Assembly: GCA_021108075.1 (NCBI GenBank)
Contig: JAIORP010000090.1
Coordinates: 79,828 to 143,827, forward strand
Origin: Candidatus Omnitrophota bacterium
GTDB taxonomy: Bacteria; Omnitrophota; Gorgyraeia; Zapsychrales; Zapsychraceae
Direction of reading: 5' to 3'
DNA length: 64,000 nucleotides
The number at the start of each line of letters is the position of its first letter. The first letter of the stretch is position 1. Positions 2,863-59,956 of the stretch are shown piece after piece. The notes under the pieces are model-generated. The model was not told where the DNA came from. It saw nothing but the letters and a program-made list of their open reading frames with translations, and searched no databases. A program made the position numbers and the translations under genes.

Positions 2863-3680
2863 TTAGGGGGATGACAGGCTTTGGCATAACTCAAGTTGCG
2901 ATTAAAGAATTGAAAGCATTAGTCGAGATTCGAAGTTTAAACCATAGATATTTTGACATCAATTGCTATTTACCTTCTGGATTTTCATCGATAGAAGACA
3001 AAATTCGTCAAATTGCTCAAAAGCAAATTAAAAGAGGGCGGGTAACCGTTTCAATAAAGATTACCCAAAAACCGCCGCCTACGATATCATTTAATAAGCA
3101 AGTTGTTCAAAGCTATATTAACGAATCGAAAAAGTTACAAAAGGTCTTTAAGTTGAACAATGATCTTTCGCTTTCCGATATTATCCGTTTTCCAGGGGTA
3201 GTCGAAACCCAAGAAATTTTTGTTAAAGGGGAGTCCGTGTGGCCTGTTTTAGAAAAAGCTATCAACAAAGTTTTGATGAGCTTGATGCGGATGAGAACGC
3301 GTGAAGGGAGGAGCTTAGCGCGGGATGTCAAGGGACAATTGGGTCGTATGTTGTTGAAAACAAACAATATAAAAAAAAGAATCCATGTGATTCGCAAAGA
3401 AAATAAGAAGATGTTAACTCCGGACGAATTTTATTCCTTTCAAAAGAGCAGTGATATTAACGAAGAAATATCGCGATTAATACATTATATTGAAGAACTG
3501 AAGTTATTGCTGAACAGTGAATCAGCCGTTGGTAAAAAAATTGATTTTATTGCGCAAGAGATGCAGCGGGAGACGAATACCATTGGTTCGAAGGTCCAGG
3601 ACAATCTTATATCAGATGCTGTCATTGCATTAAAAAGCAAGATTGAAAAAATCCGAGAGCAATCTCAAAATATTGAATGA
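2853..3680 (+). CDS. yicC: YicC/YloC-family stress-induced protein (RNase YicC family)
   Basis: N-terminus MTGFG and a C-terminal DUF1732-like region. The yicC-gmk-rpoZ synteny is conserved. Confidence 0.75.
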   Translation: MGMIRGMTGFGITQVAIKELKALVEIRSLNHRYFDINCYLPSGFSSIEDKIRQIAQKQIKRGRVTVSIKITQKPPPTISFNKQVVQSYINESKKLQKVFKLNNDLSLSDIIRFPGVVETQEIFVKGESVWPVLEKAINKVLMSLMRMRTREGRSLARDVKGQLGRMLLKTNNIKKRIHVIRKENKKMLTPDEFYSFQKSSDINEEISRLIHYIEELKLLLNSESAVGKKIDFIAQEMQRETNTIGSKVQDNLISDAVIALKSKIEKIREQSQNIE

Positions 3681-5212: not shown

Positions 5213-5283
5213 GGCGCGATAGCCAAGTGGTAAGGCCGTGGTCTGCAAAATCACTATCGCCGGTTCGATTCCGGCTCGCGCCT
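5213..5283 (+). tRNA. tRNA-Cys (GCA)
   Basis: Hand-folded cloverleaf with acceptor stem GGCGCGA/TCGCGCC, anticodon loop CTGCAAA and T-loop GGTTCGATTCC. Confidence 0.8.
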
Positions 5284-5338
5284 TTAATCGTACATTAATG
5301 GATGATTGAAGCGTGAGTGGATTATTACGATATGTTGT

Positions 5339-5421
5339 GGGCAAGTGGTGGAATGGCATACACGTTGGACTTAAAATCCAATGGCTGCAAGGCCGTGTGG
5401 GTTCGACTCCCACCTTGCCCA
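5339..5421 (+). tRNA. tRNA-Leu (TAA), long variable arm
   Basis: Acceptor stem GGGCAAG/CTTGCCC, anticodon loop CTTAAAA, long extra arm and T-loop GGTTCGACTCC. Confidence 0.8.
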
Positions 5422-5470
5422 TATGTTTTTGAGAAACAAAGAATTTTTTTTGGATATCTTTGTTTTACTT

Positions 5471-5547
5471 GGGCGGTTAGCTCAGTTGGTTAGAGTGCTA
5501 CGTTGACATCGTAGAGGTCACAAGTTCGAGTCTTGTACCGCCCACCA
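5471..5547 (+). tRNA. tRNA-Val (GAC), CCA encoded
   Basis: GGGCGGTTAGCTCAGTTGGTTAGAGC... with anticodon loop TTGACAT, T-loop GGTTCGAGTCC and ...ACCGCCCACCA at the 3' end. Confidence 0.85.
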
Positions 5548-22164: not shown

Positions 22165-22396
22165 GTTGACCCAATTTTATTGATTTATTAATTTTATATT
22201 AGCTGCTAAAATAATATTCCCTGCTGTGCGCGTTAGGGTGCATACATATAGAACCAATACTCTATAAAGGGCGCTAAACTTCTCTGGTATCCGTGGATAG
22301 CTGAGAGAGGTGCCCACGTGGTGACAACGGTTCACCATATTGTGTATCCGACGGCATAAGCGGGGAATTTTTTTATTTAACCATAATATTAAACTG

Positions 22397-29126: not shown

Positions 29127-29198
29127 TGCCCTGTGGTGTAATTGGCAACACATGAGATTCTGGTTCTTAGATTCCAGGTTCGAGTCCTGGCGGGGCAG
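29127..29198 (+). tRNA. tRNA-Gln (CTG)
   Basis: Hand-folded with U1-A72 acceptor stem TGCCCTG/CGGGGCA, anticodon loop TTCTGGT and T-arm CCAGGTTCGAGTCCTGG. Confidence 0.75.
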
Positions 29199-42206: not shown

Positions 42207-44012
42207 ATGAAATCATTCTACCTAAAGTTAAGAAATTTTATGCCCCGCCGTATCTGGTCGCAGATCTTTATCGTCCTTATTATCGCGGTTATTGTTCCCC
42301 TTTCTCTCCTCGGATTTCTTCTTACGAGTACCAGCCAGGAAGCTGTTAAAGTCAGTGTTTTGCGGGATTACAAGCAAATTGCGACACAAGCTACCGGTGA
42401 AATTAGTCAACACATTTTAGGTGCGAGACAAGCTTTGAGTGTGACGGCGTCTATTTTAGGCACATTGCATGCAGATAGGTGGCGGCAAGAAACAACCATC
42501 GTTGAGTTAGCATTAAAATATCCTATTTTTACCCGCATTGCCTCCATTGATAAAAGCGGACTGGAAATAACAACATCACAGTTAGGAGCACCGCTTCAAA
42601 ACAGAGCAGGGGATGTGCCTTTTATAGAGGCGATGAAAGGCGTGGAATATTTATCTGCCGTCATATTAGCGGACAATTATATCCCTCAAATGACAATGGC
42701 CGTGCCGATTAAACGCCTAGGAAAAATTCAGGGGGTTTTATTGGCGAACCTGAACTTGCGTACGGTTTGGGATATCGTCGACAAGTTGCGTTTTGGCCAA
42801 ACAGGGGAGGCCGTCATCATTGATCAGACAGACCGGGTGATTGCCCATCAGGACAAAAAATTGGTTTTGAATAATCCCAAAAATTACATTGACGGTTTTT
42901 TGAAATATATTCAGCCTGGTGTTAGCGGTAGCGCAGAAATCGTCGATAACAGTAATCGCGGGGTGATCATTGCCTACGCTCCGATAACGGATTTGAATTG
43001 GAAATTGATTATCTTTCAAAAACAAGAAGAAGCGTACTCATTTCTGAAAAAGATGCAATATCAATCACAGATTATTTTTATTTTTAGTCTGGTCATAACG
43101 ATTTTTATTAGTATCTTTCTTGCCCGGTGGATGAGCCAGCCTTTAAACAAAATTATCCAGGGGACCCAAAAAATAGCCCAAGGTGATTTTTCTCAATTTT
43201 TACGCGTACAGCGTCGAGATGAAATTGGTAAATTGTTCTTTTCTTTTAATCGCATGACGCGACGCCTGCGGGAAGCGAGAAAAGTGGAGAAATTGTCCAT
43301 TATTGGAAAAGCTGCCGCGGCGATTGCTCACGAATTAAAGAATTCCTTGGTTCTTGTCAATACGTTTATTGAATTGTTGCCGAAAAGGCACAAGGACCAG
43401 AAATTTATTAAAGAATTTTTTCAAACGGTTCCTCAGGAGTTGGAATCCTGGAACACCATGTTAAAAAATATGATGAGTATTAACCCTCCGGAACTAGAGA
43501 ATATTCCTTTCAGTGAACTTTCGATTAATGTGATTGTCAAAAATATAATCACATTGGTGCAGATGAAAGCCGACCAAAAAGACATTGCAATCAAATTATC
43601 ATTTGATGAAGCCAATCCTGTGGTCCAATGCAATGAAGAAAAAATAAGACACGCGATTCTAAATATTATGACAAATGCCTTAGATGCCACCCCTTATGGG
43701 GGAGAGGTGGAAATACAAACAAAATGCATTTTGCGTTGCCAGGATCGGTTGGAGTCTAAGGTGGAAATTGTGATTATAAATAGTGGCCAACATATTGATG
43801 AATCAAAGATCGATAAAATTTTTGAGCCGTTTTATACCACGAAAGGGGGTGGATTCGGTTTGGGCTTAGCGATTAGCATGGAAATCGTCAAAGCTCATAT
43901 GGGTACGATTACGGTTGTGAATCAATTTCCGCAGGGCGTTGTCTTTACCATTATTTTGCCTTCCAAGAACGTTTCTGCTTCGACACCATCTAAGACCAAA
44001 TTCAATAAATAA
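42207..44012 (+). CDS. Sensor histidine kinase (2 TM, extracytoplasmic sensor domain, HAMP, HisKA, HATPase)
   Basis: TM1, a ~260-aa periplasmic domain, TM2, HAMP, H-box IAHELKNSL and G-boxes GGFGLGL. Confidence 0.85.
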   Translation: MKSFYLKLRNFMPRRIWSQIFIVLIIAVIVPLSLLGFLLTSTSQEAVKVSVLRDYKQIATQATGEISQHILGARQALSVTASILGTLHADRWRQETTIVELALKYPIFTRIASIDKSGLEITTSQLGAPLQNRAGDVPFIEAMKGVEYLSAVILADNYIPQMTMAVPIKRLGKIQGVLLANLNLRTVWDIVDKLRFGQTGEAVIIDQTDRVIAHQDKKLVLNNPKNYIDGFLKYIQPGVSGSAEIVDNSNRGVIIAYAPITDLNWKLIIFQKQEEAYSFLKKMQYQSQIIFIFSLVITIFISIFLARWMSQPLNKIIQGTQKIAQGDFSQFLRVQRRDEIGKLFFSFNRMTRRLREARKVEKLSIIGKAAAAIAHELKNSLVLVNTFIELLPKRHKDQKFIKEFFQTVPQELESWNTMLKNMMSINPPELENIPFSELSINVIVKNIITLVQMKADQKDIAIKLSFDEANPVVQCNEEKIRHAILNIMTNALDATPYGGEVEIQTKCILRCQDRLESKVEIVIINSGQHIDESKIDKIFEPFYTTKGGGFGLGLAISMEIVKAHMGTITVVNQFPQGVVFTIILPSKNVSASTPSKTKFNK

Positions 44013-44099
44013 TTCTTCTGATTTCTCCTCGTTATTTGCATAAAAGCATTCGTAAAAAATGATGAGATTTTTTGAAATTATTGAATGAAATTGGTATAA
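43993..44099. repeat. MITE/REP-like repeat, copy h (subfamily A), left TIR overlapping the HK stop codon
   Basis: ACCAAATTCAATAAATAATT...AATTATTGAATGAAATTGGTATA. The internal sequence aligns with copy a, and the last 6 codons plus stop of the HK lie within the TIR. Confidence 0.55.
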
Positions 44100-44194
44100 T
44101 TACGCAGCGTTGATTTTTTGCCGTCTTTACGTCCACCTGTAAGAATGATGATTTGATCTGGTATTTTTTATATGTTTTTATAAAATATATGAAG

Positions 44195-44222
44195 AAAAAG
44201 CAGAAAAAAGTCAGTTTTTTCC
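44195..44222 (+). promoter_or_regulatory. Conserved upstream motif GAAAAAGCAGAAAAAAGTCAGTTTTTT (site 2), followed by a CTATTTACA -35-like box and TAAGAAT -10
   Basis: Paralogous to site 1 at 38334. It lies 64 nt upstream of the AraC-type RR gene. Confidence 0.4.
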
Positions 44223-44285
44223 GGATTGAAACTATTTACAAATTATAAAAATTGCGTAAGAATAATAGAAACGGAGGGGGAGGAA

Positions 44286-45038
44286 ATGATATCTGAAAGA
44301 ATCGTGGTTATTGATGACAACATGAAAATTATCAAAAGTATTAAAATGGCGTTGATCGAGTATGAAATTATCGATTTCCCCTGCGGGGAAAAAGCCATTG
44401 AGTTTTTTAAAAAACCAAATGAGATTAACCTGGTGCTTTTGGATGTCTTTATGGATGGGATGAACGGCATAACTGTCTTGAAAGAATTAAAAAAAGTGAA
44501 CAAAGATTTATCCGTTATCATTATGACGGCCTATGGCTCAAAGGATATTGTTTTACAGGCCTTGCGCAGCCATGCGGATGACTTTATAGAGAAACCGTTT
44601 AACATTAATGATTTAAAAGGAAAGATAAAGAATATTTTGAAGGAAAAAATCTATCTTTCATGCGCCAATTCTTCCAAAGAAGAGCAGATTGACCGCATTA
44701 AACGTTTTATCGACCGGAATTACAATAATGCTAACTTAGAATACATTTCAAACGAACTTTGCATAAGTCCTAAATATTTAAGCCGTATGTTTAACCGAAA
44801 GAGCAACTGTTCTTTTCGGACTTATAAACTCGGTGTCAAAATAGCTAAAGCAAAGTATTTTCTTAAAGAGACGAATATAAATGTTAGTGAAATTGCTGTT
44901 GAATTGGGATATCAGAACCCGGAATCGTTTATGCGGATTTTTAAGAAGATAACGACGATGACACCTATGCAGTATCGGAAAAAGTTTAACCTTAAACAAC
45001 ATCGATCAAACAATATGAAAGCTGCCGTATCATTTTAA
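44286..45038 (+). CDS. Response regulator with AraC-type HTH output domain
   Basis: REC domain (VVIDDN...LLDVFMDG...) plus a C-terminal AraC/XylS HTH. SD GGAGGGGGAGG. Confidence 0.8.
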   Translation: MISERIVVIDDNMKIIKSIKMALIEYEIIDFPCGEKAIEFFKKPNEINLVLLDVFMDGMNGITVLKELKKVNKDLSVIIMTAYGSKDIVLQALRSHADDFIEKPFNINDLKGKIKNILKEKIYLSCANSSKEEQIDRIKRFIDRNYNNANLEYISNELCISPKYLSRMFNRKSNCSFRTYKLGVKIAKAKYFLKETNINVSEIAVELGYQNPESFMRIFKKITTMTPMQYRKKFNLKQHRSNNMKAAVSF

Positions 45039-45041
45039 ATT

Positions 45042-46226
45042 ATGATGAAAAAAATATTAATCGTTGATGATGATAATTGCACACGTTTATCGATTAAACG
45101 TCTCTTATCCTCATATGATGTGATTGAAGCCAATCATGGGCAAGCTGCTATCGAGCTGGTTCAGAAGCATGCCCCCGATCTTATTCTCCTAGACCAAATG
45201 ATGCCGCAAATGGATGGGTTGGAAGTTTTAAAAAGAATTAAGGCGATCGACGAGGATATTCAATGTGTGATTGTGACGGCACAGGGCACGTTGCAGTTAG
45301 CCGTGCAAAGTTTGAAGCACGGGGCATTGGATTTCATTGTGAAACCGTTCGAGGCCTTTGTTCTTTTGCATACGGTTGAGCGGGCTTTAGAGCACGTGGA
45401 CCTCATTCAATCCAAACGTAAAGTGGGTCAGGAAAAGGAAAAAGCACAGGCAGAGTTGCTGCATTATAAAAATGATTTGGAAAAGATTGTCGAAGAAAGA
45501 ACAAAAGAGTGCAAAGAGGCGCAACAGAAAGCAGAAAAGGCGAATAAGGCAAAGTCTGAATTTCTCGCTAATATGAGCCATGAACTGCGGACACCGATGC
45601 ATGGAATTTTGAGTTTTTCTAAGTTTGGTGTCGAACGGTATCAAGGGGAAAAGAGAGAGACATTAAGGGACTATTTTGGGGAAATAAAAAGTTGTGGCGA
45701 CCGCTTGCTCAACCTGTTGAATGATTTGCTGGATTTGTCAAAATTAGAAGCGAACAAAGTCCAGTATCAATTTAATCCTGTTTGCATTCAAGATTTTTTT
45801 CAATCTGTCGTGGATGAACTGAAGGCCTTTTCCGCTGAAAATGGAATCGAGTTGAAGTTGGACGGCAATGCTTTGACGGAAACCGTTAACCTTGATAAAG
45901 AAAAAATGGTTCAAGCCCTCCAGAATTTATTATCTAACGCCATTAAATTTTCTGCGAAGGACAAAGCGGTTGTCTTGTCGGCGGAGCATCGGCAAGAGCA
46001 TTTTTTGATCGCTGTTCAAGACAATGGCATTGGAATTCCGGATGAGGATTTAGATACTATTTTTGACACGTTTTATCAAAGTCAGCTGACAAAGTCAAAA
46101 GATCAGGGCTCAGGTTTAGGTTTATCCATCGCACGCAAGATCATATCGGATCATAACGGATTGGTCTGGGCTGAAAATAATCCGGATGGCGGCGCGATTT
46201 TTTATATCCTCCTGCCGAAGGATTAA
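45042..46226 (+). CDS. Hybrid signalling protein: N-terminal receiver (REC) + HisKA + HATPase (cytoplasmic)
   Basis: REC (LIVDDD...LLDQMMPQMDG), coiled-coil, H-box MSHELRTPM and G-boxes GSGLGLSIA. Confidence 0.85.
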   Translation: MMKKILIVDDDNCTRLSIKRLLSSYDVIEANHGQAAIELVQKHAPDLILLDQMMPQMDGLEVLKRIKAIDEDIQCVIVTAQGTLQLAVQSLKHGALDFIVKPFEAFVLLHTVERALEHVDLIQSKRKVGQEKEKAQAELLHYKNDLEKIVEERTKECKEAQQKAEKANKAKSEFLANMSHELRTPMHGILSFSKFGVERYQGEKRETLRDYFGEIKSCGDRLLNLLNDLLDLSKLEANKVQYQFNPVCIQDFFQSVVDELKAFSAENGIELKLDGNALTETVNLDKEKMVQALQNLLSNAIKFSAKDKAVVLSAEHRQEHFLIAVQDNGIGIPDEDLDTIFDTFYQSQLTKSKDQGSGLGLSIARKIISDHNGLVWAENNPDGGAIFYILLPKD

Positions 46227-46238
46227 GGGGGTGTCGTT

Positions 46239-47327
46239 ATGAAAACAGAAGAAAAGTTTTTTGTGGACGCGACGAAAAATAGAATCTTAATTGTTGATGA
46301 TGAACATGTCAATATCCGGATTCTTAAGACCATTCTATCTGACGATTATGATTTGACCGAAGCTTCTTCAGGGGAAGAAGCTATTGAACTGGCCGAAAGC
46401 CAAAAATTTGATTTGATCCTATTGGACATTATGATGCCGGGCAAGGATGGTTATGAGGTCTGTCGTTATTTGAAGACCAGTAAAAGGCATGCAACCATTA
46501 AAACGATTTTGGTATCAGCCCGGGCGATGCTGGAAGAGCGCTTGAGGGGATACGAGTGTGGAGCGGATGATTATATCGTTAAACCGTTTGACGGGGATGA
46601 GCTTCTTTCAAAAGTAAAAGTTTTTTTACGTTTAAAGTCGATGGCCGAGATCGAAGAGATTAAAGGCAATTTATTAAAACTGATTGCGCACGAACTTCGA
46701 ACCCCGTTAAACGGCCTATTAGGGTTTGCGGCTTTATTAGAAAAAAGCAAAACGATTAGTGATGGTGATAAGCAATATGTTATGCACATTCTTAGCTGCG
46801 GGAATCGGCTGCTGGAGTTCTCTCAAAAAGCACTTTTATTATGTGACCTAAAAAGCAATTATAAGATAACTAAAAAAGACAGGCATTTAGTCAAAATACT
46901 GGAAGAGACCATCCGCTCTCTTCAATGGAAGGCCGTGGATAAAAAAATACGCTTTTGTGTTGTCAATAAAATGGATAAAGTCGCAGCGTTTGATCCAATG
47001 ATGATGAATTTTGCTATTCGGTTTGTTCTTGATAATGCCATTAAGGTTTCACCTCAAGAAAGTGAAATTGCTATACATATTGAAGAGAAGAACGACTGGT
47101 GTTATATTCATATCCAAGACCAGGGTCCTGGCATCAGCAATGGGCAGATGGATCAAATTTTTCAATTGTTTATTGTGGATGATGTGATGCAGCATAGAAA
47201 TGGCCAGGGGCTGAGTTTGCCTATAACCAGAGAGATTATGCGTTTGCATCAAGGACGCCTGCGAATATGTAATAATCCATCCTCAGGGGCAACAGTTGAA
47301 TTGTCTTTTCCCCTTGTAAGTGAATAA
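46239..47327 (+). CDS. Second REC + HisKA + HATPase hybrid kinase
   Basis: REC (ILIVDDEHVN...LLDIMMPGKDG), H-box IAHELRTPL and HATPase (NGQGLSLPI). Confidence 0.8.
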   Translation: MKTEEKFFVDATKNRILIVDDEHVNIRILKTILSDDYDLTEASSGEEAIELAESQKFDLILLDIMMPGKDGYEVCRYLKTSKRHATIKTILVSARAMLEERLRGYECGADDYIVKPFDGDELLSKVKVFLRLKSMAEIEEIKGNLLKLIAHELRTPLNGLLGFAALLEKSKTISDGDKQYVMHILSCGNRLLEFSQKALLLCDLKSNYKITKKDRHLVKILEETIRSLQWKAVDKKIRFCVVNKMDKVAAFDPMMMNFAIRFVLDNAIKVSPQESEIAIHIEEKNDWCYIHIQDQGPGISNGQMDQIFQLFIVDDVMQHRNGQGLSLPITREIMRLHQGRLRICNNPSSGATVELSFPLVSE

Positions 47328-50170: not shown

Positions 50171-50671
50171 ATGTTAAGAAAATTTTTAGTGCTTTTTCTC
50201 ATTGTTCTTTTGGCTGGATGCGGTTCTCCCAAGAAGACAAAGTATCAGGGGGTTGAAGCCGATAATAATTATGTTGAAAAGGGAATGAAGTTTTTATCCC
50301 AGGGAGATGTCTTAAAAGCCATTAAAAATTTTGACATGGCGATAAAGAACGATCCTAATAATATAAAGAACTATTTAACCTTAGCCCAGGTTTATATCCG
50401 TTTAAAAAACTATCCGCGTGCCATTGACACCCTTTCTGCGGCAACGCGTGTGGATCCGATTAACGGTGATGTCTACTATTTGTTGTCGGTCAGCCAACGA
50501 CTCAATGGTGATTTAAAAGGAGCGATTGATTCTGCCAAAAAGAGTGTTGTTTTGTTTCAGCGCTCAGGCGATCAGGACAATTTTAGCCGTTCCGCGGGAG
50601 TTTTGAAGAAATTGATGCAGGAAGCGCAACAATTCCAATCCCGGGCGGATGAGGCACCAACACAACCTTAA
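50171..50671 (+). CDS. TPR-repeat lipoprotein
   Basis: Lipobox LLAGC followed by TPR-like repeats. Confidence 0.55.
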   Translation: MLRKFLVLFLIVLLAGCGSPKKTKYQGVEADNNYVEKGMKFLSQGDVLKAIKNFDMAIKNDPNNIKNYLTLAQVYIRLKNYPRAIDTLSAATRVDPINGDVYYLLSVSQRLNGDLKGAIDSAKKSVVLFQRSGDQDNFSRSAGVLKKLMQEAQQFQSRADEAPTQP

Positions 50672-52266
50672 TGTGTTTGAAAATTAAGACCGCGTTGTTA
50701 TCTGTCTTTGGGTTAGCTTTTTGCTCGCTATTCTTTTTTTTGTCTTTTCCTAACGCGCTTTCTCACCAGGGCCATTCATTTTTTCTCTGCTTTTTTTTGT
50801 TTCCATTCTTTTATTTCGTCCGGGATTGTTATGGTTTTAATCGGATACTGCATGGCCTTTTTTTAGGCGTATTTATGTATGGGCTGCTTGTTTTGTGGCT
50901 CTTCGGTGTTCATCCGTTCGGATATTTTTTATTTGTCATCTTTTTATCTCTGCAGACAATCATATTTTGTCTGTTGTATATTGATCCTCGTAAGTGCTTA
51001 ACGAAAAACCATTCTCTTTTAGATGCTGAGGGCAATGCTTTTTATTCCAGGGTGCTGGTTATGTCCGGTTGTTTTTATCTTCCGAGCCTCTGGGTCATGA
51101 GCGAATATTTACGCACATTATTCCTGCGAGGATTTTCTTGGAGCATTGCTCATGGGCTGAGTCATATCCCCGGCTTTTTAAGGATATGCCGTTACACGGG
51201 TTCTTATGGCATGTCTTTTGTCTTGATACTGGTTAATGTTTTGATCTTTTTTATGCTTCAAAGAAAACGTTCAATAACATATTATGTCTATATGCTTCTT
51301 ATTCCCCTTTCTGTTTTTGGCCTATTTCATCTGGCAGAAAATGATATCGTCCTGATAAATGAAAATATTTCTGTCGCACAAGAACAAGATATTTTAATGG
51401 TTTGTTCCATTCAGCCTCACTTAGATGCGCGGGATAAAGCGCATCTAATGCATTTAGACCGCATGATGGATGATAACATCGCTTTATCAAAACGATGCAC
51501 GCAAGATCGTCCGGTGGATTTAATTGTCTGGCCGGAGACAGCGATCCCCGACGATGTTATCCGAAACCGGACTGTAAACGTTCGGGTTAAAAACCTCGCG
51601 CGGGCTTTAGACACGCATTTGCTCATCGGCTCTGCTCTTGAGATCCAGAAGAATGACTACAATAGTGTTGTTTTTTTTGACCGCGAGGGGAAGGATAGAG
51701 GTTTTTATCATAAAATAAAATTGATTCCATTCGCGGAATATCAACCACCTTTCTTTGATCAAGTTATTTTTAAGGCGATGATCTTACCGAAAAGTTATGA
51801 TTTTCAGGCCGGGGAGCGGGTTTGTTCCTTCCCGTTAAAGACGGGGACCAATAAACGGGTTTTTCGTTTTGGAAGCATTATTTGCTCAGAAGAATTTTAT
51901 CCCGGATTATTACGTCGCGTCAAAAATGAAAATAATGATTGTGTTATTTCTGTGCTGAATGATCAATGGTTCCCGCCCCCTGCGAAGCGATTGCATTGGC
52001 AGGCAGCTGTGATGCGTGCGGTTGAATTTGGTTTTCCTGTCTTGCGTTCGGCTAATGATGGCATAACGGATTGGATTGATTATCAAGGCCGTTCCGATAA
52101 TATCAGGAACACAGCATTGGCGCAGGGCAAAGGCATTCACATTTTTGCTGTAGAGAAAAAAAAGCAATCGACCTTTTACCAAAAATATGGTGATGTTTTT
52201 GCTCAGATGTGTTGTGTTTTTGTTATAATGTTTAAGTTCTTAGATGCCGTATTTATTAAAGCGTAG
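50671..52266 (+). CDS. lnt: Apolipoprotein N-acyltransferase
   Basis: Multi-TM N-terminal domain plus a C-terminal CN-hydrolase domain (WPETAIP, ...SIICSEEFYP). Confidence 0.7.
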   Translation: MCLKIKTALLSVFGLAFCSLFFFLSFPNALSHQGHSFFLCFFLFPFFYFVRDCYGFNRILHGLFLGVFMYGLLVLWLFGVHPFGYFLFVIFLSLQTIIFCLLYIDPRKCLTKNHSLLDAEGNAFYSRVLVMSGCFYLPSLWVMSEYLRTLFLRGFSWSIAHGLSHIPGFLRICRYTGSYGMSFVLILVNVLIFFMLQRKRSITYYVYMLLIPLSVFGLFHLAENDIVLINENISVAQEQDILMVCSIQPHLDARDKAHLMHLDRMMDDNIALSKRCTQDRPVDLIVWPETAIPDDVIRNRTVNVRVKNLARALDTHLLIGSALEIQKNDYNSVVFFDREGKDRGFYHKIKLIPFAEYQPPFFDQVIFKAMILPKSYDFQAGERVCSFPLKTGTNKRVFRFGSIICSEEFYPGLLRRVKNENNDCVISVLNDQWFPPPAKRLHWQAAVMRAVEFGFPVLRSANDGITDWIDYQGRSDNIRNTALAQGKGIHIFAVEKKKQSTFYQKYGDVFAQMCCVFVIMFKFLDAVFIKA

Positions 52267-52275
52267 AGGGCCGTC

Positions 52276-52815
52276 ATGACACAAAGGGCGTTTTTAGTTA
52301 TGGGGATGGTGTTGTTTGGTTTAGCCGTATCCTTTGATAAACAGGTGCATGCGGCGGGAGTTGTTGCCAGACAACAGCAGATGCAAAAAAAGCAGATTGA
52401 GCAGCAAAGGAAACAAAATTCCGTTCGGGAATCTGTCCGGCAACAGCCTATTGATAGGGAAGGTGAAAGCGAAATATTAGATCTGGCGGCCATCTGGCTG
52501 GAGCTTGAATCGAGCAGTGAGGTTTGGATTCGAATGATGGATCAGGGTCCCAAAGAGATTACCGTGGAAAAGTATTTGGAGCAGTTTCGGCAAAAAGGGA
52601 TTCGAATTCAAAAATCAGCCGCGCATTATGTGCAGTTGCTTGATTCCATGGGGCGACAGAATCCAGGTTTATTGCAGCAACCGTTCAGTCCATTATTACG
52701 TTTTATTGTCATTATGGAATATGATTTTGATAATGGGATGGATAAAGATGCCTTGGCCCATAAAGTATTAGGTGAGAAAATTTATCAGCAGAACAAGCAA
52801 CGGCTGGGGTTTTAG
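52276..52815 (+). CDS. Secreted hypothetical protein (Gln/Arg-rich N-terminal region)
   Basis: Signal peptide. No recognisable domain. Confidence 0.4.
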   Translation: MTQRAFLVMGMVLFGLAVSFDKQVHAAGVVARQQQMQKKQIEQQRKQNSVRESVRQQPIDREGESEILDLAAIWLELESSSEVWIRMMDQGPKEITVEKYLEQFRQKGIRIQKSAAHYVQLLDSMGRQNPGLLQQPFSPLLRFIVIMEYDFDNGMDKDALAHKVLGEKIYQQNKQRLGF

Positions 52816-52931: not shown

Positions 52932-54287
52932 ATGAAATGGATTCCTTTGGTGATGTGTTTTGTTTTGGTTTCAGGAGGTATCTGTGAGGCTAAAGTTGAT
53001 CTCGTGAGTCTTCCGAGTCGCGATAGTGTGCAGTTAACGATTTATAATTCCGCAGATTTAACACTGGCAAAAGAAAGCCGGTCCCTTACCCTGAAAGAAG
53101 GTTTCAATGATCTTCAATTCTCCTGGGCGAATACCTTGATTGATCCAACGAGCTTAGAGCTTGTTCCATTAACAAATGCTGATCGAATTGACGTTCAAGC
53201 ACTAACCTATCCTCCGAGAGTTAAAAATTTGGGATTATGGAACATTGACAGTGGCCTGAGCGGACAAATTCCTGTTGAAATTAGCTATTTGACGAGTGGT
53301 TTAAGTTGGCGTGCTTTTTATCTTGGAACATTAACACCGGATGAAAAGGAAATGAGGTTAAAGGGATATGTCCGCGTTCTTAATAATAGTGGCGAAGATT
53401 ATGAAAATGCTCAAGTCCGTCTGATTGTCGGCAAGGTTCACATCATTGATCAGATAGCCCAATTGGCTCAAAGGCAATATCCGTATGAACGTCCGGGAAT
53501 TTATCCTGCGGCACAACCGGAGGTGCACTCAAAACGAAGTCGCCAGGATGTGCGCGTGATGAAGTCCGTCATGATGGGAGAGGGTATAGCTTTTGGCTCT
53601 GTCGCCCCGATGGAGACCAAGGAGATTATTAAAGAAGGTTTGAGCGAATATTTTTTATATACGATTGAGGGCCGGGAAACCATTCTAAATGGATGGTCAA
53701 AGAGATTACCGAGCTTTGATGTCGCGAGCGTGCCAGTGGTTAATCTGTATAAATATGAAGAGGAGCGATACGGTTATCAGGTGATCCGTTTTTTAAGTTT
53801 TAAAAATGATGAGGATCACCTGTTGGGGGAAACACCGATTCCCGGAGGTTTATTAAAAGTATTTCGAAATGTTGATGCGGAGAATCATTTAAGCTATGAA
53901 GGACAAAGTGAATTCAAGTATATCCCGATTGACGAGGATGTTGAGCTGAATTTAGGTGCGGTGCAGAATATCGTTGTTGAACCCAAGCTGATGAATCTTA
54001 AAACGGAAAATTTTATGTTTGACCGTCATGGGAATATTAATGGATGGGATGAGGTCCGAACGTACAAAATGGAAGTGAAAAATACGCGTCAGGTTCCGGT
54101 TGAGGTTGAGATTAAACGGAATTTTAATGCTCTCAAATGGGATATCCACAATGAAGGTGCTGAGGTGAAATATGAAAAAATTGACGCCAATACAGTGAAA
54201 TACAAATTAGCGTTACAATCAAAAGAAAATAAAACGTTTCAATATACTCTACGGACATTTCATGGCCGTAGAGGAGACCACAAATAA
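52932..54287 (+). CDS. Secreted ~450-aa protein, paralog P1 of a 5-gene tandem family (possibly the DUF4139/DUF4140 'MuiA-like' family, unverified)
   Basis: Signal peptide, conserved N-terminal domain KVDLVSLPSRDSVQLTIYNSADLTL..., SYLTSGLSWRAFYLGTL, a variable central segment and a conserved C-terminus ending FHGRRGDHK. Confidence 0.7.
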   Translation: MKWIPLVMCFVLVSGGICEAKVDLVSLPSRDSVQLTIYNSADLTLAKESRSLTLKEGFNDLQFSWANTLIDPTSLELVPLTNADRIDVQALTYPPRVKNLGLWNIDSGLSGQIPVEISYLTSGLSWRAFYLGTLTPDEKEMRLKGYVRVLNNSGEDYENAQVRLIVGKVHIIDQIAQLAQRQYPYERPGIYPAAQPEVHSKRSRQDVRVMKSVMMGEGIAFGSVAPMETKEIIKEGLSEYFLYTIEGRETILNGWSKRLPSFDVASVPVVNLYKYEEERYGYQVIRFLSFKNDEDHLLGETPIPGGLLKVFRNVDAENHLSYEGQSEFKYIPIDEDVELNLGAVQNIVVEPKLMNLKTENFMFDRHGNINGWDEVRTYKMEVKNTRQVPVEVEIKRNFNALKWDIHNEGAEVKYEKIDANTVKYKLALQSKENKTFQYTLRTFHGRRGDHK

Positions 54288-54320
54288 TGGCAATCATCGG
54301 ACCTTAATTAGGAGGCGATA

Positions 54321-55460
54321 ATGAAAAAAAATATGTATTTAAAAAGTGTCATCATGTTAAGTATGTTTTGTTTCTTGAGTTTGTCTGTGGCTGAGGCCCG
54401 GATCAAACTTGTGGCCCTTCCCAAGAGGGCGGACACCATCATCCGGTTGGACAATCCCCAATTTACATTAATAGAAGAAGAACGTGTGCTGACTTTACAA
54501 CAGGGATTAAACAAAGTTGATTTCTCCTGGAACGGTGTCAGTATTGATCCTGATTCGATCCGCATTGATATCCTGTCCCATTCCGACCAGGTCACACTTT
54601 TAAACGTGAGCTATCCGCCAAATGAGAATGCGCTTGTTTGGGAAATTAGCAGTGCCGGAGCGCGGGAAGAAAAGATCCGCGTCAGCTATTTGCTTTCCAA
54701 TATTGACCGATTGATCACATATAAATCCGTTGCTGATAAAGCGGAGACACAGGTCAACTTTAAGAGTCATCTCATTTTGAGGAATTTTTCAGGGGAAGAT
54801 TTTGCTAATGCGAAAGTGTTGCTTGATTATGGTGAATCCTTTGAGGAAGGCATCCGACACGAAGAAACAAAACAACTGCTGTTTCTTAAGGCTGGAACGG
54901 TTCCGATCGAAAAGGTATGGCAATGGGATTCCAAAAAACAAATTTGGGACCCGGAAGAAGTTGATCAAAATGTCGGGATTCCGGTCCATTACCGCATAAC
55001 AAACACAACGGACTCGAACTTAGGTCAGAACGCGTTATGGAATGGTAAAATGCGTGTTTTTCAATTGGATGGTCATGGCAGCACGATTCTGTTAGGCGAA
55101 GATGCTGTTGATTTAACTCCGGTCGGTGAAGATATGGAAGTTTATATCGGTGATAGCCGGGATTTGGTGGTGACGCAGCGTAAGATGGTCGACAAGCAGA
55201 CAAATATTCGGCGTAATACGAGTGGCCGCGTTGTTTTATATGATAACGAAGAGCAGGTAACGGCTAAAATTGAGAACTTCAAAGATACAAACGCGAAATT
55301 AAAAATGGTCCAACATATCCCTGGAGAATGGGATATGCATAGCTGCAATTTCGAATATAAGAAGGAGAACGCAAATACGATTGAATTTGAAATTGATGTG
55401 CCTGCGCAGGGTAAGGCGGAGCTTGTTATGCATTACTTTAGACGAAATATTCGCAATTAA
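54321..55460 (+). CDS. Secreted protein, paralog P2 (divergent, shorter, lacks variable insert)
   Basis: Same N-terminal pattern (RIKLVALPKRADTIIRL...VSYLLSNIDR...) and 379 aa. Confidence 0.6.
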   Translation: MKKNMYLKSVIMLSMFCFLSLSVAEARIKLVALPKRADTIIRLDNPQFTLIEEERVLTLQQGLNKVDFSWNGVSIDPDSIRIDILSHSDQVTLLNVSYPPNENALVWEISSAGAREEKIRVSYLLSNIDRLITYKSVADKAETQVNFKSHLILRNFSGEDFANAKVLLDYGESFEEGIRHEETKQLLFLKAGTVPIEKVWQWDSKKQIWDPEEVDQNVGIPVHYRITNTTDSNLGQNALWNGKMRVFQLDGHGSTILLGEDAVDLTPVGEDMEVYIGDSRDLVVTQRKMVDKQTNIRRNTSGRVVLYDNEEQVTAKIENFKDTNAKLKMVQHIPGEWDMHSCNFEYKKENANTIEFEIDVPAQGKAELVMHYFRRNIRN

Positions 55461-55473
55461 AGGAGGCCGGGCA

Positions 55474-56850
55474 ATGAAAGTGAAGCTTTTCTTTCTTGTT
55501 TTTCTGTTGGTGCCCGGTGTTTCCTTGGCCAAAGTTGATCTTGTGACGCTTCCTCAACGGGATCATGTTCAGTTGACGATTTACAATTCAGCGGACTTAA
55601 CACTTATCAAGGAGAGCCGTTCTTTAACCCTCAAAGAAGGATTTAACGATCTGCAGTTTTCTTGGGTCAACACATTAATCGATCCGACCAGTTTGGAAAT
55701 GCTGCCATTAGCCAACGCGGATCAAATTGATGTCCAATCCTTAACATACCCTCCCCTTTTAAAAAACGTGGGATTATGGCATATACGCAGCTCAGTGAGC
55801 GGTCAAGTCCCTTTTGAAATCAGTTACTTAACGAGTGGTCTCAGCTGGAGGGCGTTCTATTTAGGAACATTAGACCCTGATGAGCAGGAAATGCGTTTGC
55901 AGGGTTTTGTGCGCGTGCAGAACAACAGTGGGGAAGACTATGAAAAGGCTCAAGTTCGATTGATTGTCGGAACAGTGCATGTCATTGATCAGATTTCTTT
56001 TTTAGCTAACCGACAGCACCCCTACGGCTCGCCCGGTATTATTAATTTTGAGCGAGAGCATTGGGGGGGAGGCGAAGATTATGATGCCGATGCGTTGGAT
56101 ATGAAAGATGCGATCGATGAAACCTTTTATGCCCTGGCCGACGCTGAATCATTTAGAGAAGAAGGGGAAATGCGTACGCCGAAGAAAATCATCAAGGAAG
56201 GATTGAGCGAATATTTTTTATACACGATTGAAGGCCGCGAAACAGTTCCAAACGGATGGGCCAAACGCATGCCGAGTTTTGATGTTGAGAAAATACCTGT
56301 TGTCAACCTTTATAAATATGAAGAGGAACGTTATGGCTCGCAGGTCGTTCGTTTTTTGAGTTTTAAAAATGATGAAGACCATCAATTGGGAGAGACGCCT
56401 ATCCCGGGTGGCATGTTAAAAGTTTTTCGTCAAGTCGACCAGGAAAAACACTTGAGCTATGAGGGGCAAAGTGGCTTTAAATATATTCCTGTCGATGAAG
56501 AGGTCGAGTTGAATATGGGTGGCGTTCAGAATGTCATCGTCGAACCAACCCTGATGGATTATCAATCGGCAAACTATATGTTCGACCGGTATGGAAATAT
56601 TATCGGTTGGGATGAAATACGGGAATATAAGATTAAACTGAAAAACACCCGCCCGATTCCCGTCAAAGTTGAAATCAAAAGAAACATCCATAATTCGAAA
56701 TGGGCCATCCAAAATCAGGGCGATGTCGGCACTTATGAAAAAATTGATGCGGACACGGTTCAATACACGATTCATTTGACGGAACGGGAGAATAAAGAAA
56801 TTGTTTACGCCCTCACGACGTTTCATGGCCGTCGAGCGGATTATCAATGA
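55474..56850 (+). CDS. Secreted protein, paralog P3
   Basis: Start at the ATG after SD AGGAGG, MKVKLFFLVFLLVPGVSLAKVDLVTLPQRDHVQL... C-terminus TTFHGRRADYQ. Confidence 0.7.
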   Translation: MKVKLFFLVFLLVPGVSLAKVDLVTLPQRDHVQLTIYNSADLTLIKESRSLTLKEGFNDLQFSWVNTLIDPTSLEMLPLANADQIDVQSLTYPPLLKNVGLWHIRSSVSGQVPFEISYLTSGLSWRAFYLGTLDPDEQEMRLQGFVRVQNNSGEDYEKAQVRLIVGTVHVIDQISFLANRQHPYGSPGIINFEREHWGGGEDYDADALDMKDAIDETFYALADAESFREEGEMRTPKKIIKEGLSEYFLYTIEGRETVPNGWAKRMPSFDVEKIPVVNLYKYEEERYGSQVVRFLSFKNDEDHQLGETPIPGGMLKVFRQVDQEKHLSYEGQSGFKYIPVDEEVELNMGGVQNVIVEPTLMDYQSANYMFDRYGNIIGWDEIREYKIKLKNTRPIPVKVEIKRNIHNSKWAIQNQGDVGTYEKIDADTVQYTIHLTERENKEIVYALTTFHGRRADYQ

Positions 56851-56866
56851 GGATAAAGGATTTTTA

Positions 56867-58243
56867 ATGAAAAAATATATTTTGTGTTTGTCCGCTGTTC
56901 TTTTGTGGACAAATCCTTCTTATGCGAAGATCGATTTAGCAACATTGCCGGCGCGCGACAGTGTGCAGTTGACGATTTATAATTCAGCGGATTTAACATT
57001 AGCCAGAGAAAGCCGTTCATTGACTTTTAAGGCCGGGTTCAATGAACTTCAATTTTCTTGGGCCAATACGCTGATCGACCCGACCAGCCTGGAAATTTTT
57101 CCTCTGTCAGATGCGGATAAAATCGATGTCCAATCCCTGACCTATCCTCCACGGGGCAAGCAGTTAGGCCTTTGGCAGATCCAGAGTGCTTTTACCGGAC
57201 ACGTTCCCGTTGAAATCAGCTATTTAACGAGCGGGTTGAGTTGGCGCGCCTTTTATTTGGGAACCTTGACTTCTGATGAAAAAGAGATGGCCTTAAAAGG
57301 ATATGTGCGCGTGATGAATCATAGCGGGGAGGACTATGAAAACGCTCAAATTCGTCTGATCGTCGGTAAGGTCCATATCATCGACCAGATTGCTCAATTA
57401 GCACAGCGCCAGTATCCGTACGGGTTTCCACAATTATTGGACAGAGGTTTAGCCGGAGGTAAGGGAGGTCGAGAACCCAGTCTTGAATTAAAAAATGAAA
57501 TGATGCTGCCACAAATCGATGTCGTCGGAGGCTGCTCTATGCCGAGAAGTTCAGGAATGTATTTTGATAAAGTAAAAGAGATCGTTAAAGAAGGTCTGAG
57601 CGAGTATTTTTTGTATACCATTGAAGGGCGTGAGACTGTTCTTAACGGGTGGTCAAAGCGTTTGCTGAGTTTTGATGTCAGCAAAATTCCGGTGGTCAAC
57701 TTGTATAAATATGAAGAAGAACATTATGGACGTCAGGTCGTCCGTTTTTTAAGTTTTAAAAATGACGAAGAACATGAGCTGGGTGAGACCCCTATCCCCG
57801 GCGGAGTTCTAAAGGTCTTTCGTCACGTTGATCAAGCCCGGCATTTAAGTTATGAAGGGCAATCCCAATTCAAATATATCCCTGTGGATGATGATGTTGA
57901 ATTGAACCTGGGGGGAGTCGGGAACGTTATTGTCGAACCCACTTTGATGGATAACAAGTCGGAAAATTATATGTTTGATCGATACGGAAACATTATTGGC
58001 TGGGATGAAATGAAAGAATTTAAAATAAAAATTAAAAATACGCGAGCGATTCCAGTTAAAATTGAAATTAAACGGAATATTCACCATCCGAAATGGACGA
58101 TTCAAAATCAGGGGGATGTCGGTTTTTACGAAAAAATTGATGCCGACACCATTAAATATACGCTTGATTTGACCCCGAGGGAAGATAAAGACATTGTTTA
58201 TGTGCTGAGAATTTACCATGGCCGTCGGGGCGACGTTCAATAA
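56867..58243 (+). CDS. Secreted protein, paralog P4
   Basis: MKKYILCLSAVLLW...AKIDLATLPARDSVQL... with C-terminus YHGRRGDVQ. Confidence 0.7.
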   Translation: MKKYILCLSAVLLWTNPSYAKIDLATLPARDSVQLTIYNSADLTLARESRSLTFKAGFNELQFSWANTLIDPTSLEIFPLSDADKIDVQSLTYPPRGKQLGLWQIQSAFTGHVPVEISYLTSGLSWRAFYLGTLTSDEKEMALKGYVRVMNHSGEDYENAQIRLIVGKVHIIDQIAQLAQRQYPYGFPQLLDRGLAGGKGGREPSLELKNEMMLPQIDVVGGCSMPRSSGMYFDKVKEIVKEGLSEYFLYTIEGRETVLNGWSKRLLSFDVSKIPVVNLYKYEEEHYGRQVVRFLSFKNDEEHELGETPIPGGVLKVFRHVDQARHLSYEGQSQFKYIPVDDDVELNLGGVGNVIVEPTLMDNKSENYMFDRYGNIIGWDEMKEFKIKIKNTRAIPVKIEIKRNIHHPKWTIQNQGDVGFYEKIDADTIKYTLDLTPREDKDIVYVLRIYHGRRGDVQ

Positions 58244-58255
58244 GACCAGGGGATT

Positions 58256-59611
58256 TTGATGAAAAAGAATATTTTAGCTTTGCTATTCCTGTTCTTATGG
58301 CCAAACATTTCACACGCTAAAATAGATTTGGTCATTTTACCCACACAGGACAGCGTTCAATTAACGATTTATAATTCAGCGGATTTGACCCTGGTGAAAG
58401 AAACGCGTTTTTTGACATTAAAAGAAGGTTTCAATGAACTGCAGTTTTCGTGGGCCAATACGCTCATTGACCCGACCAGCCTGGAAATATCGTCAAAAAA
58501 GAAAACAGATGTGATAAATGTCCGGTCGTTGAAGTATCCCCCGAAGATAAAAAATGTGGGATTATGGAATATCCATAGTCGCATAAGCGGGCAAGTCCCA
58601 GTGGAAATCAGTTATTTAACCAGCGGATTAAGCTGGCGCGCTTTTTATTCGGGAACATTGACGCCTGATGAAAAAGAAATGAGCTTAAAAGGTTATGTGC
58701 TTGTAACAAACAACAGCGGGGAGGATTATGCTAACGCGCAAGTTCGTTTGATCGTTGGTCAAGTCCACCTGGTTGACCAGATTTCTAGCCTGGCCCTACG
58801 GTCGGCCCCATATTCAACGCCGTATCAGGCCAAAACGGACAGCAATTCGATACACGCCTTTCAGAACGGCCGGGCACTCGATTATGGTGACTATAGCGAT
58901 GTCACGGCGTCGAGATCATTCAAAAAATACAGACGAAAAGCAAAGGCGGTTTTAAAAGAAGGTTTAAGTGAATATTTTTTGTATACGATCGAAGGGCGAG
59001 AAACAATTCCGAATGGTTGGTCAAAACGTTTACCGAGTTTTGATGTTGGTAAAGTGCCCGTGGTCAATTTATATAAATATGAAGAAGAACGTTACGGTTC
59101 TCAGGTCGTTCGTTTTTTGAGTTTCAAAAACGATCAAGACCATCAATTAGGTGCAACTCCGATCCCGGGTGGAATGCTCAAAGTTTTCCGTCATGTCGAT
59201 CAGGAACACCATCTGAGCTATGAAGGACAATCGCGTTTTAAATATATCCCTATCGATGAAGATGTCGAGTTGAATTTAGGTGAAGCAGGCGATGTTGTCG
59301 TAAAGCCTATGTTAATAAATTTTAAAACGGAGAATTATTTGTTTGATCGCTATGGCAATATTAGCGGGTGGGATGAAGTCTATACGTACAAAATTGCGGT
59401 TAAAAACACCAGAGAGGTCCCGGTTAAAATAGAAATAAAGCGCAATTTTAATGTTCAGAAATGGGATGTTCAACATCAAGGTGATTATGGCGCCTTTGAA
59501 GCCATTGATGCGGATACGATCCAATACACTTTAGGAATGCAAAGTCAAGAGAATAAAGAGTTTATGTATATTTTGCGGGTTTTTCAAGGCCGAAGAGGCG
59601 ATGGCGGGTAA
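58256..59611 (+). CDS. Secreted protein, paralog P5
   Basis: MMKKNILALLFLFLW...AKIDLVILPTQDSVQL... with C-terminus FQGRRGDGG. Confidence 0.7.
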   Translation: MMKKNILALLFLFLWPNISHAKIDLVILPTQDSVQLTIYNSADLTLVKETRFLTLKEGFNELQFSWANTLIDPTSLEISSKKKTDVINVRSLKYPPKIKNVGLWNIHSRISGQVPVEISYLTSGLSWRAFYSGTLTPDEKEMSLKGYVLVTNNSGEDYANAQVRLIVGQVHLVDQISSLALRSAPYSTPYQAKTDSNSIHAFQNGRALDYGDYSDVTASRSFKKYRRKAKAVLKEGLSEYFLYTIEGRETIPNGWSKRLPSFDVGKVPVVNLYKYEEERYGSQVVRFLSFKNDQDHQLGATPIPGGMLKVFRHVDQEHHLSYEGQSRFKYIPIDEDVELNLGEAGDVVVKPMLINFKTENYLFDRYGNISGWDEVYTYKIAVKNTREVPVKIEIKRNFNVQKWDVQHQGDYGAFEAIDADTIQYTLGMQSQENKEFMYILRVFQGRRGDGG

Positions 59612-59648
59612 GTATGATCTGTATGAGTCGTATTATAATAAAAGAAAC

Positions 59649-59677
59649 TTGACTTTTCAAATCAGGACTAGTATACT
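59649..59677 (+). promoter_or_regulatory. Sigma70-type promoter TTGACT-17-TATACT upstream of carAB
   Basis: Consensus-like boxes with a 17-bp spacer, about 280 nt before the carA start. Confidence 0.45.
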
Positions 59678-59750
59678 TCATGCAATCAGCGTTAATTTTT
59701 CCATGAATCCTTAATCCTGTACGCAGTATGGTTTCAGGACGAATTCATCG

Positions 59751-59788
59751 ACAAGACGAACGGGCCATATGTGTCTGTCAGTTTTTTT
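59751..59788 (+). terminator. Leader terminator/attenuator in the carAB 5' UTR
   Basis: Hairpin GACAAGAC(gaacgggccatatgt)GTCTGTC followed by AGTTTTTTTT, between the promoter and carA. Confidence 0.45.
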
Positions 59789-59956
59789 TATAATAAAGAC
59801 TCTTCTTATTTTTTCTTTTTATATTCATTTTTATCTTTTGCGGTTCATATTAATTCTTTATACCTGTTAATAAAAACGTGTCGACCGGATTATTGCAGAT
59901 TTATTAATGTAAACAGTGGGTACGTTAATCACTTGATGTAAACAAATTGCAGTAGA

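Follow-up and report, generated by a model that had tools for sequence, protein, structure and literature searches.

An array of five co-directional genes, designated P1 to P5, exactly fills positions 52932–59611 of the + strand of the stretch analysed here, 64,000 nucleotides from the genome of a Candidatus Omnitrophota bacterium (contig JAIORP010000090.1; referred to below as the window). Omnitrophota are members of the Planctomycetes–Verrucomicrobia–Chlamydiae (PVC) group, and comparison with related loci indicates that the array is one version of a widespread, strongly conserved PVC-group operon of exported beta-sheet proteins. The open reading frame (ORF) list gives the following genes, four of a long type (L) and one of a short type (S):

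52932..54287, + strand: P1, long-type exported DUF4139 protein, 451 amino acids (aa); ORF and PF13598 match (54.0 bits)
54321..55460, + strand: P2, short-type paralog, 379 aa; lacks the helix/loop segment; one copy in each array
55474..56850, + strand: P3, long-type paralog, 458 aa; start internal to a longer ORF (55381); PF13598 45.2 bits
56867..58243, + strand: P4, long-type paralog, 458 aa; start internal to a longer ORF (56801); PF13598 37.5 bits
58259..59611, + strand: P5, long-type paralog, 450 aa; PF13598 48.3 bits

P1 occupies the slot upstream of the short gene P2, and the starts of P3, P4, and P5 are internal ATGs of slightly longer ORFs. The intergenic gaps from P1 to P5 measure 33, 13, 16, and 15 nt, and a purine-rich Shine-Dalgarno sequence lies 6–9 nt 5' of each ATG (AAGGGGG, AGGAGG, AAGGAGG, AAAGGA, and CAGGGGA for P1 to P5, respectively). 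All five N-termini pass from a short basic stretch through a hydrophobic stretch to a small-x-small site followed by K/R-[VI]-[DK]-L, with predicted cleavage at CEA/KVDLV (P1), AEA/RIKLV (P2), SLA/KVDLV (P3), SYA/KIDLA (P4), and SHA/KIDLV (P5), the slash marking the cut. The five proteins are therefore predicted to be exported by the Sec route via a cleavable signal peptide, and the first residues of the mature proteins align with the beginning of the periplasmic domain in anti-sigma fusion proteins encoded by relatives. A preliminary description of the locus had noted five consecutive, tightly spaced genes with Shine-Dalgarno sequences, a signal peptide on each product, and a conserved N-terminal motif; the gene coordinates and the five N-termini agree with it on all of these points. 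P1 is 100% identical to the database entry ‘DUF4139 domain-containing protein [Candidatus Omnitrophica bacterium]’.

Antisense ORFs of 101–143 aa lie inside the array genes on the − strand (54886–55203, 56416–56847, 57394–57699, and 57845–58240). They have no support as genes and most likely arise from the constraint on the sense frames.

Long and short types and the age of the copies

In the protein alignment, P1 shares 68%, 67%, and 66% identity with P3, P4, and P5, respectively, and 27% with P2; 72 columns are invariant across all five proteins. P2 can be aligned with P1 from end to end save for one missing segment, the short type being without the helix and loop present at residues ~169–240 of the long type. 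A profile-profile comparison shows the two families to be homologous (hhalign probability 99.8%, E 1e-27, 357 aligned columns).

P2 had been described as a shorter, divergent member of the set. The description holds for its length and for its distance from P1, but P2 is no decayed leftover copy: along its whole length it shares 72% identity with a 378-aa protein of an Opitutales genome, and a conserved short family is found next to the long gene. A protein search returned 3430 relatives of P2, most of them without a Pfam annotation, and 24 of 41 short-family members match PF13598 at E <0.01. By these comparisons, P2 is the single-copy member of a distinct, ancient, and equally conserved short family that adjoins a long gene across several phyla, and the split between the two types is older than the phyla sampled. 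The search with P2 gave no match above 73% identity, probably as a result of a word-index limit, and a 379-aa gene stands at the P2 position in four of four assemblies. Short-type genes also occur in metagenome-assembled genomes (MAGs) labelled Thermodesulfobacteriota (L033, which has an L-S pair only) and Pseudomonadota (P0237); these non-PVC labels may reflect binning errors or horizontal transfer.

The preliminary description had likened the proteins to the DUF4139/DUF4140, or MuiA-like, family. The DUF4139 part of that comparison stands for the four long copies, all of which pass the whole-protein gathering cut-off of PF13598 (DUF4139; 31.8 bits) at the scores listed above, with P2 (18.0 bits) falling under it. 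The remainder does not stand. Against DUF4140 (PF13600, cut-off 27 bits), P1, P3, P4, and P5 have no match at E<=1 and P2 reaches 15.7 bits (E 0.02). The TIGR02231 (MuiA) cut-off of 112.6 bits over a 524-position model is missed by every protein (P1 40.2, P5 39.2, P4 30.2, P3 25.8, and P2 12 bits), the alignment being confined to model positions ~190–510, the C-terminal two thirds. The profile scores thus point to a separate, much more conserved PVC subfamily within the DUF4139 superfamily. DUF4139 is itself a large family without a mechanistic description, and the four papers naming it that our literature search found give no functional account. Withers and colleagues reportedly found in 2014 that, in Pseudomonas, MuiA damps a stress response driven by proteolysis. 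A defence or phage origin of the array is rejected on the absence of matches to PADLOC (anti-phage defence) and PHROGs (phage) models at E<=0.1.

The long copies of the window are old. Their nucleotide sequences are only 65–67% identical, their longest common exact run is at most 25 nt, and they differ at 0.78–0.83 per synonymous site (saturated) versus 0.20–0.23 per non-synonymous site. This comparison, which the preliminary description had proposed, indicates purifying selection. The identical five-gene array, flanked by lnt and carA, is present in four independent assemblies, and a related Omnitrophota contig (L034; P1 86% identical) retains the order clpB, tetratricopeptide repeat (TPR) gene, P1, P2. 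We read the array, from these sequence distances, as an old, lineage-specific duplication under purifying selection. The tandem arrangement taken alone speaks for a recent dosage amplification, or for an assembly artefact expanded from one gene, but we give that explanation practically no chance. The array cannot be an expanded-repeat artefact, because nucleotide identity is low, shared runs are short, and the same array was assembled in four independent data sets; the collapse to one gene that would have refuted the preliminary description is seen in none of them. Recent amplification is ruled out by the same divergence and saturation, and P2 belongs to a different conserved family. Selection for dosage, one of two pressures suggested previously, is therefore unlikely, since the copies are old and are kept under purifying selection. 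The other, selection for variation, is plausible for a loop of 45–55 residues only.

The operon in PVC-group relatives and its regulation

We compared 111 non-redundant related loci, 26 from GTDB genomes, 80 from metagenomes, and the others obtained via exact look-up. Named genome records among them are MAGs of Opitutales, Kiritimatiellales, Victivallales, Pirellulales, Phycisphaerae, Sedimentisphaerales, and Anaerohalosphaeraceae. An L gene comes immediately after S in 68 of the 73 loci with enough downstream sequence, and every array architecture listed combines a single S with varying numbers of L. The window contains the same S + L paired module, P2 being followed by P3 after 13 nt on the same strand. 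Copy number varies among relatives, as a check proposed in the preliminary description had envisaged: the 39 complete arrays hold two (5 arrays), three (15), four (13), five (5), or seven (1) family genes. The window, with the order L-S-L-L-L, is thus at the high end of the range, where other five-gene arrays exist, and the arrays of Opitutales and Kiritimatiellia have a window-like order, L-S-L(-L). The subfamily is also abundant in sediment and digester metagenomes, with >8000 long and ~3400 short clusters at 90% identity.

In a neighbour-joining tree, the modules fused to anti-sigma factors form, together with a few free long copies, a separate deep clade, and the other free long copies cluster with those of their own genome. 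The four long copies of the window are held together in 199/200 bootstraps, and the Opitutales, L015, L027, and L020 sets in 200/200 each. Positional orthology of long copies across phyla is thereby ruled out. Because copies group by genome with high bootstraps, the long type would have expanded repeatedly and independently, or been homogenised long ago; compositional attraction may be an alternative source of the by-genome grouping.

At the head of the array in relatives stand an extracytoplasmic function (ECF) sigma factor gene and then a gene for a 585–686-aa anti-sigma fusion protein, an arrangement seen in 42 of the 56 loci whose sequence extends 3.5 kb or more upstream of S. The sigma factor carries Sigma70_r2 and r4_2 domains. 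Each of the 48 fusion proteins carries H-x3-C-x2-C near its N-terminus and, around residue 87, a strong transmembrane segment; their periplasmic module, which shares ~50% identity with P1, adds a third paralog to the DUF4139 set. Of 47 sigma/fusion junctions, 24 have a 4-nt overlap between the sigma stop and the fusion start, and in 42 the two are no more than 11 nt apart; the gap from the anti-sigma gene to S is mostly <60 nt. A conserved ECF-type promoter, TGTCAACC-N16/17-CGTCT(A/T), lies upstream of the sigma genes in loci L014–L117 (e.g. L029, ~3030–3090), often with a AATTTTAC-like repeat 5' of the TGTCAACC motif. The pattern TGTCAAC-N15-19-[CT]GT[CT] was found upstream of the sigma gene in 45/48 ECF loci versus 0/63 loci without a sigma gene, and 48 of 49 occurrences of the promoter motif are directly upstream of a sigma gene. 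Because of the position of this motif and the short gaps to S, S and L are apparently transcribed together in these relatives, under an ECF promoter that is autoregulated.

The Sigma70_r2/r4_2 domains, the overlapping anti-sigma gene, the H-x3-C-x2-C motif, and the one transmembrane segment are those of ECF/zinc-binding anti-sigma (ZAS)-type pairs, and the relatives resemble ECF systems in having an autoregulatory promoter with AAC-type -35 and CGTC-type -10 elements. The literature searched contains no description of an anti-sigma DUF4139 sensor domain. The promoter motif and the anti-sigma architecture, being defined, can now be used in cultivable Planctomycetota or Kiritimatiellota.

Additional genes stand between the anti-sigma gene and S in a minority of the 111 loci: serpin genes in 11, thioredoxin-like genes in 4, and CarboxypepD_reg genes in 7. 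Some Planctomycetota operons have secreted serpin genes immediately upstream of S (Pfam Serpin, 406 bits; L029:8655-9899, L016, L018, L021, L022 [two copies], L023, L024, L100, and L110), and some of the serpin-bearing operons also have AhpC/TSA-thioredoxin-like and CarboxypepD_reg proteins. Clustering of neighbouring ORFs revealed no conserved accessory genes beyond the ECF, fusion, S, and L genes and only lineage-level synteny, with a membrane protein, a ThuA/isochorismatase-like protein, and a short-chain dehydrogenase/reductase as partners.

Conserved body, variable loop, and possible function

Conservation of the long type was measured over 89 long homologs; the resulting figures are upper bounds, drawn from the matches closest to P1, and overstate family-wide constraint. 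With that reservation, of 451 positions 132 do not vary at all and a further 115 reach at least 90% conservation, mean conservation is 0.92 across residues 21–185, and 41% of charged positions, versus 60% of hydrophobic positions, are at least 95% conserved. The value for charged positions suggests that the surface as well as the core of the long proteins is constrained. The top long-type matches, which come from several PVC phyla, average ~75% identity between pairs, which is unusual among exported proteins. At 50% clustering, the entire long group falls to essentially one representative; 302 clusters lie below E 1e-30, and the wider superfamily comprises 3422 clusters below E 1e-3.

The sole variable segment of the long type is a loop, located in the array as follows:

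53487..53627, + strand: P1 variable loop, aa 186–232; disordered in the model, low column conservation
56026..56190, + strand: P3 variable loop, aa 185–239 (protein alignment)
57422..57583, + strand: P4 variable loop, aa 186–239 (protein alignment)
58814..58951, + strand: P5 variable loop, aa 186–231 (protein alignment)

In relatives, the loop is 32–48 residues long, and its flanks, RQYPYGRPG and KEIxKEGLSEYF, are near-invariant. Column conservation falls to 0.32 in the most variable 20-residue block (201–220). The loop is rich in Met (8.2%, 5.4x the rest of the protein), Ala (4x), and Pro (2.6x), and 60% of loops have at least three Met. The sensor modules of the anti-sigma factors retain a variable loop of the same kind. 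Structure prediction had been proposed as a check on whether the variable part forms an exposed loop; in the AlphaFold2 model of P1, the predicted local distance difference test (pLDDT) score is <50 at residues 190–239, so that the segment is predicted to be disordered and presumably exposed. One relative, P0255, has a 256-residue insert with a Laminin_G_3 (ConA-like lectin) domain in place of the loop (residues 204–459), and another, P0243, has a Laminin_G_3 domain at its C-terminus (residues 480–624). Because the site is disordered in the model and swapped for a Laminin_G_3 domain in P0255, it is presumably exposed and insertion-tolerant, and at least a few members bear a binding module there.

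The models of P1 (AlphaFold2; pLDDT 78) and P2 (pLDDT 71) are all-beta. Foldseek places Ost1/ribophorin I as the top whole-length match of both and GPI16/PIG-T second for P2 and eighth for P1, with low template modelling (TM) scores of 0.15–0.20. Further neighbours are N-domains of M1 aminopeptidases, mu-homology domains, and accessory domains of glycoside hydrolases; alpha-2-macroglobulin (A2M) is not among the top structural matches. PF04597 (Ribophorin_I) has no match in P1–P5 at E<=1, and no hydrophobic segment is apparent at the C-terminus of the sequences. A sequence search of solved structures gave a weak match to a collagenase collagen-binding domain (residues 359–430, E 1.7e-4), and the family profile matched nothing meaningful among solved structures, with no solved enzyme. 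A literature search for a fold comparison with Ost1 or LTA4H found none. The predicted fold hints at a non-catalytic scaffold and offers no evidence of homology. The luminal domains of Ost1/ribophorin I and PIG-T/GPI16, which Foldseek matched, belong to non-catalytic multi-sandwich scaffold subunits of extracytoplasmic complexes.

The reading that we favour, tentatively and with somewhat less than even confidence, is that S and L co-assemble into a non-enzymatic envelope scaffold that displays the loops and is under ECF control in relatives. P2 and the long isoforms P1, P3, P4, and P5 would form a hetero-oligomeric periplasmic or envelope assembly, in which the near-invariant beta-sandwich body would supply the subunit contacts and the flexible Met/Ala/Pro-rich loop would be an exposed, isoform-specific contact to a ligand or client. 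Co-function of S and L is supported by the direct succession of S and L in most loci and by the presence of one S per array. In most relatives, the operon would be transcribed from its own ECF-type promoter, with the sigma factor and the anti-sigma factor, whose sensor is a paralog of the products, tuning output. Such tuning via the sensor is probable because the sensor is paralogous to the proteins that it regulates. The sensor domain might join or compete for the S/L assembly, providing feedback on assembly state by a logic comparable to that of CpxP-CpxA, or it might bind the same ligand as the regulated proteins, as does the sensor of the RsgI-SigI system of cellulolytic clostridia. The module would serve envelope homeostasis or stress, a role suggested by the ECF linkage, the occasional serpin and thioredoxin-like genes, and the parallel of MuiA and SbrI. 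Gene structure, family relations, the pattern of conservation, operon architecture, sigma/anti-sigma linkage, the promoter motif, and the disorder of the loop and its replacement by a lectin domain are observed; that the proteins co-assemble, touch a ligand by way of the loop, take part in feedback sensing, and serve in envelope stress is what we infer from these patterns. In a more far-reaching form, which we consider unlikely, S, L, and the sensor would be protomers of an unrecognised PVC-specific hetero-oligomer that is read by the ECF system, the L isoforms would display interchangeable loops or domains on a common scaffold, and, one step further, this scaffold would be homologous to the luminal Ost1/ribophorin I and PIG-T scaffolds of eukaryotic ER complexes.

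Several observations weigh against co-assembly under ECF control. No L stands right after S in 5 of the 73 loci, the conservation figures are upper bounds, the TM-scores of the fold matches are low, export is predicted from sequence, and a physical interaction of S, L, and sensor is something we infer. Searching the 64-kb window by tblastn with the sigma factor, the fusion N-terminus, and the serpin matched only the five array genes; the pattern TGTCAAC-N14-20-GTC has 0 matches in the window, and no TGTCAACC-like site lies within 400 nt upstream of P1. The window array is a variant without a linked regulatory pair or promoter and with a free exported L copy in its first slot; for the window, the reading as an envelope-stress module is borrowed by analogy from the relatives.

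Other explanations account for some of the same features. S and L may instead be independent secreted lectin- or adhesin-like binders, with a different specificity in each L loop and a sensor that binds the same external ligand and turns on synthesis of the binders, as in RsgI/SigI; we regard this as somewhat unlikely. Alternatively, the proteins would be protease decoys or regulators in which the loop acts as bait for periplasmic or foreign proteases, cleavage of the sensor loop frees the sigma factor, and the operon serpins then inhibit the protease. The secreted serpin directly upstream of S in 11 of 111 loci, the same kind of variable loop in the sensor domain, and the reported action of MuiA on a proteolysis-driven response speak for such a role, which is nevertheless improbable: the serpins are accessory (~10% of loci) and absent from the window, none of the Pfam families of alpha-2-macroglobulin, MG, thioester, or protease-inhibitor proteins was detected in P1–P5 at E<=1, and the loops are alike in composition (Met/Ala/Pro), with no diversity of cleavage sites. 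That the array proteins are enzymes of a well-characterised family, such as glycoside hydrolase-like or peptidase-like proteins, was foreseen in the preliminary description as a finding that would overturn it. Glycoside hydrolase accessory domains and M1 aminopeptidase N-domains are indeed among the structural neighbours, but only non-catalytic sandwich domains were matched, the profile has no match to solved enzymes, and no Pfam or NCBIfam enzyme family matches P1–P5 at E<=1 except for a stray Bac_rhamnosid_C (C-terminal domain) match at E 0.11. We consider this possibility very improbable.

Comparison with described systems helps to place the scaffold reading. The array proteins resemble DUF4139/MuiA (TIGR02231; P. 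aeruginosa PA1494) in their four PF13598 matches, in the partial TIGR02231 alignment, and in their predicted export. They differ from it in scoring about 40 bits or less against the TIGR02231 cut-off, in having no DUF4140 match, and in their cryptic short paralog, tandem long isoforms, and Met-rich loop. A link to ECF regulation is common to both: one report names MuiA of P. aeruginosa as a target of SbrI, an ECF sigma factor that envelope stress induces (PMC10418997), and the operons of the relatives appear to be ECF-driven. Unlike MuiA, which is a mere regulon member, the relatives fuse a DUF4139 domain to the anti-sigma factor itself. They share with RsgI-SigI a sensor domain paralogous to the downstream products, whereas the window array has no such pair. 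The conserved multi-sandwich body, the one disordered isoform-specific loop, and the occasional serpins recall, by analogy only, alpha-2-macroglobulin bait-region proteins; unlike these, the array proteins have no A2M, MG, or thioester families, their loop composition is conserved, and there is no sign of trapping. The pairing of short and long types, isoform differences restricted to the loop, and ECF control through a paralogous sensor turn a bare DUF annotation into testable hypotheses, suggesting co-assembly, loop-mediated binding, and feedback sensing of assembly state.

Surroundings of the array

Upstream of the array lie lnt, a TPR lipoprotein gene, and clpB; carA lies downstream. The TPR protein (50171–50671, + strand) has a lipobox-like LLAGC, and its ORF shares one base with lnt (50671, where the former ends and the latter starts), the lipoprotein gene thus being coupled to that of the lipoprotein-maturation enzyme apolipoprotein N-acyltransferase (50171–52266 in all, + strand). 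A 179-aa ORF directly upstream of the array (52276–52815, + strand) begins with what looks like a signal peptide and includes a Gln-rich stretch. Every assembly of the organism has it; it has no Pfam, PADLOC, or PHROGs match and no tblastn counterpart in those related loci that were searched with it.

The 346-nt spacer between P5 and carA (59612–59956) holds a sigma-70-like promoter (59649–59677) and the following feature:

59760..59788, + strand: terminator-like hairpin and T run (consensus scan), ~150 nt past the P5 stop

The hairpin is a possible end of the transcription unit, terminator-like sites in the region being no more numerous than in shuffles. The spacer has no Rfam match, and its predicted fold is no better than those of shuffles; it could hold the terminator of the array or a carA leader.

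Upstream of clpB, positions 42207–47327 (+ strand) encode a 601-aa ORF (42207–44012), an AraC-type response regulator, and two receiver-histidine kinase hybrids. The 601-aa product is assigned to dCache_1/HAMP/HATPase families on contig L035 of the same genome, and the gene order is kept in the Omnitrophota contig L034. Farther away, a 6S/SsrS RNA match (RF00013, 54.1 bits versus a gathering cut-off of 46.4) lies at 22215–22370 (+ strand), in the spacer after an ORF ending at 22164, and the window also has a cluster of three tRNA genes (5213–5544, + strand) and a single tRNA gene (29127–29198, + strand).

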